From Parcubacteria group bacterium (GTDB lineage Bacteria; Patescibacteriota; Patescibacteriia; Magasanikbacterales; GCA-002688135), in contig NZCD01000069.1 in the NCBI GenBank assembly GCA_002688135.1, forward strand, positions 1-45,604: 45,604 bases of DNA, read 5' to 3'. The position numbers and the translations under genes were made by a program. Shown here one piece after another: positions 25,946 through 26,822 of the stretch (its first letter is position 1; each line of letters opens with the position of its first letter). The notes beneath the pieces were generated by a model. The model was not told where the DNA came from and did not search any database. It saw nothing but the letters and a program-made list of their open reading frames with translations.

Positions 25946-26191
25946 ATGATGCAGCTTGTGTTTGGCGCGGGGATGGTGAGTGCATTGATTGGGCTATGTG
26001 GAATCGTTGGTGTGTTGTTTTTTGTGGCTCGCGTACGGTATCTGCAGTCGCATCAATCTCAGGATGATGCTAAGATTGCACAATGGGACATGTATGCATT
26101 GCAAGGAATTCTTTCTGAGTTTGCTGCAAGTTTGTTTGCTCTTCTGTTGGGTGTAGTCTTGATTGTTGTTTCGCATTTGTTTGGCGGGTAA
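25946..26191 (+). CDS. Small hypothetical membrane protein (2 TM)
   Basis: Starts directly after the previous stop codon; hydrophobic. Confidence 0.55.
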   Translation: MMQLVFGAGMVSALIGLCGIVGVLFFVARVRYLQSHQSQDDAKIAQWDMYALQGILSEFAASLFALLLGVVLIVVSHLFGG

Positions 26192-26250
26192 GTCCCGTCT
26201 TTTTTATACTTGATTTTTGTGAGTGATTTCTATATGATACATCTCGCTGT

Positions 26251-26658
26251 GGCCAGGTAGCCAAGTGGTAATGAAGGGGCCTTCAACCCTCTTAGTTGCT
26301 CAACTTACAATACTGGCAAGCTGCACCTGTTTTCACTCGTCGTTTGATCGACGTACTACAACGTACGCCTCACTGCACGACTCGTTCCAAACAGGCACAT
26401 CTTATCCAGTCTTGAAAGTTGCTCGCGTCCGTGGAAATTAAAATGTGGCCAGGTAGCCAAGTGGTAAGGCAGGGGCCCACTTCACCCTCTATTCTCTATT
26501 GCTCAACATCCGATACTGGCAAGCTGCACCTATCTTCACTCGTCACTTATTCGACGTACGGAAATGTACGTCTCATTGCGTGACTCCCTCCAGATAGGCA
26601 CATCTTATCCAGTCTCGAATGTCGCCGATGTTCGTGGTCTATTGGAAATAAACACTTG
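26251..26658 (+). repeat. Two ~200-nt units, each a tRNA-Cys 5' half plus a long structured hairpin
   Basis: GGCCAGGTAGCCAAGTGGTAA at 26251, 26447 and 26659; homologous hairpins with compensatory changes. Confidence 0.9.
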
Positions 26659-26730
26659 GGCCAGGTAGCCAAGTGGTAAGGCAGGGGCCTGCAAAGCCTC
26701 TATTCGTGGGTTCGATCCCCGCTCTGGCCT
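26659..26730 (+). tRNA. tRNA-Cys(GCA)
   Basis: GGCCAGG/TCTGGCC acceptor stem, GGGGC-CTGCAAA-GCCTC anticodon arm, GGTTCGATCCC, U discriminator. Confidence 0.95.
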
Positions 26731-26822
26731 TATAAAATCCATCACGTATGTGGTGGTTTTTATGTTGACAATTTTTTTAGTGAATGCTATGGTTTTGCTG
26801 TTCTTTAATAAGGGGGTTAGTT

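Follow-up and report, generated by a model that had tools for sequence, protein, structure and literature searches.

Partial duplicates of transfer RNA (tRNA) genes reportedly occur at the integration sites of tyrosine-integrase elements, in the form of attL and attR. The duplicated segment is said to be the 3' part of the tRNA, with the crossover lying in the anticodon loop, the T-loop or the 3' end. REP/REPIN/BIME, ERIC/IRU, Correia (NEMIS) and RUP elements are intergenic palindromic repeats that form hairpins, are non-coding and occur in multiple copies. IS200/IS605-type transposons and their PATE derivatives bear hairpins and insert beside a short motif without duplicating it. SRM/NTS (Ssn-related) motifs are described as inverted repeats of 20-50 nt with a defined CGTC tag that are cut by GIY-YIG single-stranded DNA (ssDNA) nucleases (PMC11893778). 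The locus reported here is a tRNA-Cys gene on a stretch of 45,604 nt (contig NZCD01000069.1, assembly GCA_002688135.1), the whole of which is called the window. The gene is preceded by an array of two dead 5' copies of itself, each joined to a 128-nt hairpin repeat that is named H here (H1 and H2 for the two copies of the array). H is a dispersed foldback DNA repeat that has been duplicated in place within dead tRNA copies; it is not a serially inserted tRNA-specific element or an evident non-coding RNA (ncRNA).

Window coordinates refer to the whole stretch on the forward strand. The genome that holds it (G000; 1.05 Mb, 71 contigs, 41.6% G+C) is a small marine genome and was compared with two congeners, G001 and G002, and with two H-bearing relatives outside this set of three, G004 and G005. 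Labels such as C49 and L036 denote contigs and loci. Genome scans were performed with R1, a covariance model built from four copies of H. The features of the window and of related arrays are collected in Table 1.

Table 1 Features of the tRNA-Cys array in the window and of cassettes at other tRNA genes
Feature	Sequence	Position	Strand	Basis
Terminator-like hairpin and T-run of the upstream 81-aa membrane open reading frame (ORF)	window	26183..26199	+	terminator scan
Promoter-like TTGATT-17-TATGAT, 9/12 consensus positions	window	26210..26238	+	promoter scan
psi-1, dead 5' tRNA-Cys copy (acceptor 5' strand, D arm, altered anticodon loop cttcaac)	window	26251..26296	+	sequence, BLAST
H1, full-length member of H	window	26297..26425	+	R1 match, 138.5 bits
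CCGTGG (YGTGG motif that follows H)	window	26429..26434	+	sequence
Spacer between units 1 and 2, 12 nt	window	26435..26446	+	sequence
psi-2, dead 5' tRNA-Cys copy up to the variable loop (ctattc), anticodon loop ccacttcac	window	26447..26499	+	sequence, BLAST
H2	window	26500..26628	+	R1 match, 139.1 bits
TTCGTGG, equal to tRNA-Cys nt 45-51 (variable loop/T-stem), also a YGTGG instance	window	26631..26637	+	sequence
Spacer before the intact gene, 21 nt, without promoter-like site	window	26638..26658	+	sequence, promoter scan
Intact tRNA-Cys(GCA)	window	26659..26731	+	ARAGORN, Rfam
Terminator-like hairpin and T-run closing the tRNA transcription unit	window	26739..26756	+	terminator scan
~165-175-nt cassette	G000; G001; G002	G000 C24:18605-18835; G001 L062:1270-1490; G001 L072, G002 L106 (upstream of tRNA-Arg(GCG))		
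D-loop-type fragments	G000; similar in G001, G002 (Val, Thr, Ile(GAT))	G000 C20:8457-8560, C22:37800-37905		
T-loop cassette	G000; G002	G000 C22:39591-39720 (downstream of tRNA-Phe), C58:4976-5100, C60:7344-7470, C60:10080-10194; G002 L036:1633-1752		

The array consists of one promoter, two units that each comprise tRNA-Cys nucleotides 1 to ~46-53, the 128-nt hairpin, YCGTGG and a spacer, and then the intact tRNA-Cys and a terminator. This anatomy had been proposed from the letters of the stretch alone (hereafter the original prediction) and is recovered here with coordinates that agree within a few bases; the promoter named there was found by scan as the only one upstream of the array. As likewise predicted, the hairpin lies near the variable-loop position: within the units it starts at tRNA position ~46-50, at the border of the variable loop and the T-stem. 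The fragments are 5' parts of the tRNA, which bears out the remark that the duplication is atypical for integration scars. The first dead copy (psi-1) is 92% identical to tRNA-Cys nt 1-36 and the second (psi-2) 100% identical to nt 1-31, and the two units share 79% identity across 180 nt. The CCGTGG after H1 is probably the T-stem start of a dead tRNA copy.

The intact gene is placed at 26658-26731 by ARAGORN and at 26659-26730 by Rfam (60.6 bits, above the gathering score of RF00005), and it is the sole tRNA-Cys detected in G000. The two upstream units, in contrast, yield no RF00005 match even at E<=10 and are therefore fragments, not tRNAs; for annotation they should be treated as dead fragments, not as tRNAs that are split or otherwise unusual. 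The anticodon loop of unit 1 (window 26278-26290) reads c-t-TCA-a-c and would decode UGA in an intact tRNA. A UGA-reading tRNA was considered and rejected, as no 3' half is found after the hairpin. The anticodon loops of unit 2 and of the corresponding unit in G001 read cc(c/t)acttcac, and a 3' pseudo-fragment in G002 has the same tcaccc variant. This is a hint that they descend from one diverged sequence resembling tRNA-Cys.

A scan of the + strand within the array for promoter-like and terminator-like sites found none. As the sole promoter lies upstream of the array, the units would belong to the 5' leader of tRNA-Cys. In the minimum-energy fold of the presumed transcript (26240-26740), the acceptor 5' strand of psi-1 pairs with the 3' acceptor strand of the real tRNA; in such a model the decoy 5' halves could compete in tRNA folding.

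The array is unlikely to be an assembly artefact, because contigs of a public DNA run bridge its junctions and G001 has the same junctions. This run covers 91% of the stretch and may be the source sample; its contigs bridge 26350-26476 and 26448-26688 with zero differences and leave 26265-26349 uncovered. Neither joints nor unit-number variants were seen in them, which is no evidence of absence.

The number of units at the tRNA-Cys locus differs between relatives, as the proposed comparison across genomes had anticipated: two in G000, one in G001 and none in G002 and G004. In G002 and G004 the same promoter is found 12-16 nt before the intact tRNA-Cys, without any unit in between, whereas in G001 it precedes a single dead copy and hairpin with junctions identical to those in G000. 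The spacing of the promoter to the first tRNA or tRNA-like 5' end is conserved in G001, G002 and G004. Since the promoter adjoins the intact gene in G002 and G004, the upstream-most 5' copy sits at the ancestral promoter and leader. The three hairpins found at tRNA-Cys group in a single clade and are each other's closest relatives: H2 and the G001 hairpin are 91% identical, H1 and H2 79%, H1 and the G001 hairpin 78%, and all other comparisons remain at or below 62%. Together with the shared junctions on both sides, this indicates that the units were duplicated in place and not inserted separately, so that the serial insertions suggested by the original prediction are not borne out. Either G001 lost one unit or it would never have gained it. 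A scan of metagenomes with the 29-nt 5' end of tRNA-Cys returned ten loci; H and a second copy are absent from all ten, and one of them is identical to G002.

Outside the array, H is a dispersed repeat. A BLAST search of the units against the whole of G000 returned two diverged hairpin copies away from any tRNA, and R1 gave six strong matches in this genome. Among 61 related genomes, five carry six to nine copies each, namely G000, two congeners, one member of a second genus in that family and one genome from a different family, and the R1 scan gave zero matches in the remaining 56. The copies are mostly located behind genes. Their presence patterns conflict among the congeners: the tRNA-Cys copies are found in G000 and G001, at an orthologous position termed site A, G001 and G002 carry a copy and G000 does not, and a copy beside trmD is found only in G000 and G002. 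H is thus multi-copy with presence/absence polymorphism at orthologous sites, as expected for a miniature inverted-repeat transposable element (MITE). The copies in G004 (83% identity) and G005 (73%, up to 94%) look recently multiplied, to judge from these identities. Those in G005 bear an additional 26-bp terminal inverted repeat (38 matches versus 0 in the control).

A tRNA gene or tRNA fragment is found at a distance of 35 nt or less from only 8 of the 19 copies in the genus, from none of the 12 copies in G004 and G005 and from none of 80 loci from other phyla that were selected by motif. A tRNA-targeting element as such is not supported by this distribution. In the covariance-model scan, of the kind that had been suggested, H is dispersed and mostly away from tRNAs, while an association with tRNAs is present in this genus and not in G004 and G005.

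Two further hairpins were observed at sites of H. Upstream (5') of tRNA-Leu(CAA) in G000, C36:34418-34545 contains a hairpin with an H-like apex and arms made of TAG-containing heptamer repeats; it was missed by R1, and G001 and G002 have H at that site. At another orthologous slot, G002 carries a copy of H (L030:1501-1628) and G000 a different palindromic element of 200 bp (C26:11470-11673). The termini of this element read CCCACGAA...TTCGTGGG, which is the heptamer that follows H and occurs in tRNA-Cys, and SRM-like units are found inside it.

The copies of H are associated with a short motif on one side. YGTGG is present within 30 nt downstream of 9 of the 19 copies in the genus and upstream of 1 of 19, compared with 4.3% of random 30-mers; as kin are not independent, the downstream count corresponds to ~6 of 12 separate loci. 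Two pairs of empty and filled sites were recovered. In the first, the empty site in G000 (C49, ~1019) already reads TTGTGG, and G001 has H followed by TTTGTGG, with the hairpin directly 5' of the motif. In the second, site A, H is located between a stop codon and the ribosome-binding site of the next gene. The (t/c)cgtgg that follows each hairpin had been equated with the ttcgtgg of the tRNA. This stands for the TTCGTGG after H2, which is tRNA-Cys nt 45-51; on the other hand, the motif also follows many copies of H at sites without tRNA and pre-exists in an empty site. A possible 5-nt repeat (ttcgt) is seen in G001 only.

At tRNA-Ser(GCT), tRNA-Leu(CAA) and tRNA-Cys, H is found between a promoter-like site (strong at Ser and Leu) and the tRNA. 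We read the overall pattern as a possible preference for, or survival in, harmless sites, that is, behind stop codons and in tRNA leaders, the latter being harmless for insertion because they are cut off anyway.

The arms of H vary and remain complementary. Between H1 and H2, 6 of 36 model pairs are changed on both sides and still Watson-Crick, and one pair shows a one-sided change; the three examples of compensation named by the original prediction are among these. In the four-copy seed alignment of R1, 19 of 34 pairs are compensated and none is changed on one side only. Across 32 aligned copies, 91.7% of the cells are paired and 33 of the 36 pairs are changed on both sides, in agreement with the earlier statement that the structure has been conserved. 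This covariation was reached by 0 of 500 shuffles, and slid controls pair at 31-45%. Compensated changes are also seen between orthologous copies, where double and single changes number 2 versus 2 (H2 and the G001 tRNA-Cys hairpin), 2 versus 0 (tRNA-Ser) and 13 versus 6 (site A), which indicates that complementarity is actively maintained.

A structure that is selected in a one-strand RNA should tolerate G.U but not A.C. The 1110 paired cells include 993 Watson-Crick, 25 G.T/T.G and 26 A.C/C.A combinations. This balance fits complementarity that is kept at the DNA level. With regard to local transcription, ~14 copies are in sense and ~10 in antisense orientation; H is sense in the leader of tRNA-Cys and antisense in those of tRNA-Ser(GCT) and tRNA-Leu(CAA). 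Because G.T and A.C are equally frequent and copies occur in either orientation to transcription, the data point to a DNA foldback repeat rather than an oriented RNA.

These observations bear directly on the proposal that the hairpins act as RNA, either as leader modules released by RNase P/RNase III or in cis on the folding, stability or processing of the pre-tRNA. For example, the hairpins could stop the 3' strand of the tRNA from pairing with the decoy 5' halves. With one promoter and no internal terminator, co-transcription with the tRNA would be required; moreover, H is present in the leaders of three tRNA genes, shows strong covariation and has conserved internal loops, and the predicted fold of the whole transcript described above suggests that leader structure could matter. 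This proposal is nevertheless quite improbable in view of the missing excess of G.U over A.C, the mixed orientation across tRNA leaders, the majority of copies that lie away from tRNAs and the tRNA-Cys loci of G002 and G004 that lack H. In addition, Rfam contains no family that matches the hairpin, be it in the window, in the other G000 copies or in the cross-phylum copies; the only hit to H was to a model of plant miRNA precursors and scored far below the threshold of that model. The leader-processed ncRNA considered in the original prediction is disfavored by the pairing balance and the orientation. More generally, the covariation of H is not evidence for an RNA gene, and compensated changes alone can mislead unless the balance of G.U and A.C and the orientation are checked.

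Relatives of H are found across phyla. A scan for the apex motif in one genome per species gave at least 121 loci, about the number expected by chance, and the 80 loci with flanks were tested with R1. H appears to be one of a class of long hairpin repeats whose apex is conserved and which spans phyla, because 32 of these 80 loci match R1 (E<=0.01), most over the full 128 positions, and their arms pair. Sources among the matches listed are Syntrophomonas, several Deltaproteobacteria/Desulfobacterales, Nitrospira, Acidobacteriota, Saccharibacteria, Neomarinimicrobiota and others. Among the same matches, 20 aligned copies have 88.8% of cells paired and 31 of 36 pairs changed on both sides, in loci chosen by the apex motif and an alignment fitted to R1; the neighboring genes among them are unrelated housekeeping genes without a constant neighbor. 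As a control, 27 apex-motif loci from viral contigs gave only two weak R1 matches.

An apex that is conserved across phyla while the arms are free to vary could also belong to a DNA site that is useful to the host, namely a hairpin or cruciform to which a conserved protein binds, for example one that acts in replication, supercoiling or recombination; the location at tRNA-Cys would then be incidental. The strand-symmetric pairing statistics and the ~90% pairing of old, diverged copies agree with such a site. It is, however, very unlikely, since H is patchy among close relatives and was found in 0 of 56 other genomes of the order, and neither a constant neighbor gene nor a candidate protein was identified.

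The account of the array that we consider probable, if only to a moderate degree, is that H is a foldback DNA repeat residing in a dead tRNA-Cys copy and that the resulting block was duplicated in place. H is a non-coding palindromic DNA repeat of 128 nt, with a conserved asymmetric apex and arms that vary yet stay complementary. In the genus it is gained and lost between species and tends to be found immediately 5' of YGTGG, at sites where an insertion would be harmless. A dead partial copy of tRNA-Cys (nt 1-51) would have been present upstream first, and H would then have been placed just 5' of the copy's own TTCGTGG. Later, the block composed of the dead 5' copy, H, TTCGTGG and the spacer would have been duplicated in place. 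Unequal recombination between direct repeats of 31-49 nt could add or remove units, leading to two, one or none. The intact tRNA would be transcribed from the single upstream promoter through the array, and the leader of ~400 nt would presumably be removed by RNase P. The complementarity of the arms may be kept by arm-to-arm copying or by selection on a DNA or ssDNA hairpin.

Several observations weigh against this account. The copies of H within the three congeners are old (49-58% mean identity), and recent mobility is not evident there. At site A the empty allele lacks YGTGG, so the motif pre-exists in only one empty site, and no target-site duplication is visible at the two empty/filled pairs of this genus. 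Among the relatives and the metagenome loci, none was found in which a dead 5' copy of tRNA-Cys stands without H. The internal loops TGCACC/GGCACA, TTCA, CTCA and TCCAG are conserved and asymmetric, which counts against a purely structural palindrome; together with the compensated changes in orthologous copies they would agree with selection for some function as well, including one at the RNA level. In the cross-phylum set, one helix has 23 G.T versus 2 A.C, compared with 14 versus 14 in the other helices. This helix (L127-L206 loci) adjoins a conserved GCCTTG/GCCTAG motif and could represent either a strand-specific, RNA-like feature or a misaligned conserved motif. A public RNA run is uninformative on expression, with one contig on the NUDIX gene next to the array and none on the array itself. 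A mobilizing enzyme for H was not found in G000 or in the H-bearing relatives examined. Finally, the account starts from the dead 5' copies, which are themselves part of a pattern that is seen throughout the genus.

About a quarter of the tRNA genes in the three congeners carry self-fragments with small cassettes. Adjacent partial self-copies are present at 10 of 40 tRNA genes in G000 and at 8 of 32 and 7 of 32 genes examined in G001 and G002, respectively. All self-fragments have the same orientation as the gene, with 5' parts upstream and 3' parts downstream, and the 5' fragments of G000 all begin at tRNA position +1, within 1-3 nt. At tRNA-Ser(TGA), an exact 57-nt 5' copy is followed by a 38-nt spacer without a hairpin. 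Dead tRNA copies thus exist without H, which supports a two-step origin of the tRNA-Cys units, although the order of the steps remains our reconstruction.

The cassettes fall into different types. Dead upstream copies of tRNA-Ile(TAT) and tRNA-Arg(GCG) extend to tRNA nt 66-69 and contain a related ~165-175-nt cassette with the core gcgatacaa..gtatcg; the break lies at the border of the variable loop and the T-stem, as for H in tRNA-Cys. Fragments of 15-19 nt from the 5' end break in the D-loop at Val, Ala, Thr and Ile(GAT) genes and continue into a related 85-95-nt cassette; a -10-like box forms the end of this cassette, directly ahead of the intact tRNA. Downstream of Phe, two Gln and Thr genes and of the tRNA-Cys of G002, 3' pseudo-fragments carry a conserved ~95-nt cassette in the T-loop, whose core reads gccatctcactc..ttcactcgg..aaagctatcgctttt..cgttcgytcgtcc. 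At tRNA-Phe, the 3' end and the terminator (50 nt) are repeated exactly, and the insertion is absent from G001. The insertions of the T-loop cassette indicate that tRNA genes are real insertion hot spots here.

Two side observations concern these arrays. At tRNA-Pro(TGG) (G000 C55:5150-5470) the array is nested: the gene is preceded by two 5' fragments and followed by two 3' fragments, and every layer lies between matching inverted repeats, so that leader and trailer could pair. SRM-like sequences (gtcattgcgag...) and heptamer-armed hairpins are located beside some of the tRNA arrays of G000.

The element supplying a new 5' half that the original prediction considered corresponds to a different history of tRNA-Cys, in which the founding event was the insertion of a mini-cassette without an integrase, consisting of H, the spacer and a new tRNA 5' half, into tRNA-Cys at the border of the variable loop and the T-stem. 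We regard such a cassette as unlikely. Its corollary is equally doubtful: the old 5' half would stay at the promoter and the gene would be rebuilt by the copy in the cassette, mirroring classical elements that replace the 3' part. In its favor, promoter and native leader adjoin the upstream-most dead copy, and in G002 and G004 it is the intact gene that this promoter adjoins. The uniform start of the G000 5' fragments at +1 is expected if only the rebuilding part is carried, the D-loop-type cassettes at tRNA-Val and tRNA-Ala bring a -10-like box just before the new 5' part, and the 3' fragments with the T-loop cassette provide further insertions, of which the one at tRNA-Phe differs between G000 and G001. 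However, at least ten loci have H without any tRNA fragment, and YCGTGG after H, whether H-associated or a target motif, is not needed by the cassette model. The unit of 195-215 nt is very small as a recombinase substrate, no integrase is nearby, and the three hairpins descend from one copy, so that at most one insertion is needed. A free unit or a unit at a second site was found neither in G000 nor in the metagenome scan.

A more general version, likewise improbable, is that gene-less cassettes, namely H and at least three further families, colonize tRNA genes through partial duplication of the tRNA and thereby spare the gene. In one of its modes the segment copied would be the 5' part, from +1 onward, with the former 5' part left behind at the promoter, and the direct repeats would make the insertion reversible; we would not place much trust in this mode. 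It is also doubtful, by the same measure, that a putative enzyme acts on the cassettes, that the tRNA-Cys array is a two-step record and that the conserved apex is the recognition site of a partner. To our knowledge, a gene-sparing insertion that duplicates the 5' part has not been described for integrases or transposases. Full-text literature searches returned no description of tRNA self-fragment arrays or of this hairpin in bacteria of the Candidate Phyla Radiation (CPR).

The neighbors of the array are ordinary chromosomal genes, the NUDIX gene and polA, and Pfam gives no match for two small ORFs that run across the array (26265-26441 and 26419-26583). G000 contains two PF00589 matches, on contigs C59 and C62, and none near the array. 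The sole Y1 (RAYT-like) transposase gene of G000 (C62:13490-14216; L050 1200-1945) lies between two copies of one 37-nt palindrome, of which the upstream copy is located 4 nt from the 5' end of tRNA-Ser(GGA). The RAYT-like gene was found in 4 of 41 relatives and not in G001, G002 and G005, all of which bear H. This gene was rejected as a mobilizer of H, as its distribution is unlike that of H and the flanking palindrome differs from H. An autonomous parent was also sought in G005, where the terminal-repeat pairs are ~160-180 bp apart. Two long intervals between terminal repeats were checked and contain no transposase: a 3-kb interval on C56 encodes pilin-like membrane genes and one on C54 rsmH and mraZ.

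The apex of H is shared across phyla, and no partner enzyme of the repeat was found. The self-fragment arrays, which enclose a quarter of the tRNA genes in the three congeners, are in many cases on the 5' side, and the textbook integrase model does not cover them. If the duplication is indeed part of the insertion, this would be a new route by which mobile DNA can settle safely at essential single-copy genes where genomes are very small.

Compared with the attachment-site duplicates of integrases, the array is similar in that direct repeats of a tRNA segment flank an insert and one intact gene is kept. Arrays of integrase elements can also accumulate at one tRNA gene, and examples of the 3' type are found in G000 as well. 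In contrast to such duplicates, nt 1 to ~49 are repeated upstream at tRNA-Cys and the break lies at the border of the variable loop and the T-stem; the inserts are ~150-165 nt long and non-coding, without an integrase inside or beside them. The siting of H next to a motif resembles that of IS200/IS605 elements and PATEs, a likeness that serves as a lead only; H lacks a pair of small hairpins at its left and right ends and the sole Y1 gene has other palindromes and a different distribution. Integron attC sites and domain V of group II introns were considered and dropped because the terminal motifs are not common to other copies of H and the helix layout differs. Like the SRM/NTS motifs (PMC11893778), H is an oriented DNA hairpin repeat that occurs across phyla. 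An assignment of H to the SRM/Ssn motifs was rejected, since by eye its apex misfits the published degenerate SRM pattern (PMC11893778). Compared with REP/REPIN/BIME, ERIC/IRU, Correia and RUP elements, H differs in being a single long hairpin of 128 nt, in the asymmetric apex shared across phyla and in the absence of a GTAG/CGTC tag. The pairing of REP/REPIN with a RAYT gene has no counterpart here, given the different palindrome of the RAYT-like gene and its lack of co-occurrence with H; a target-site duplication or an autonomous parent was not found either. In other respects H behaves like these repeats: it is mostly located behind genes, varies in a patchy manner between close relatives and is often co-transcribed.

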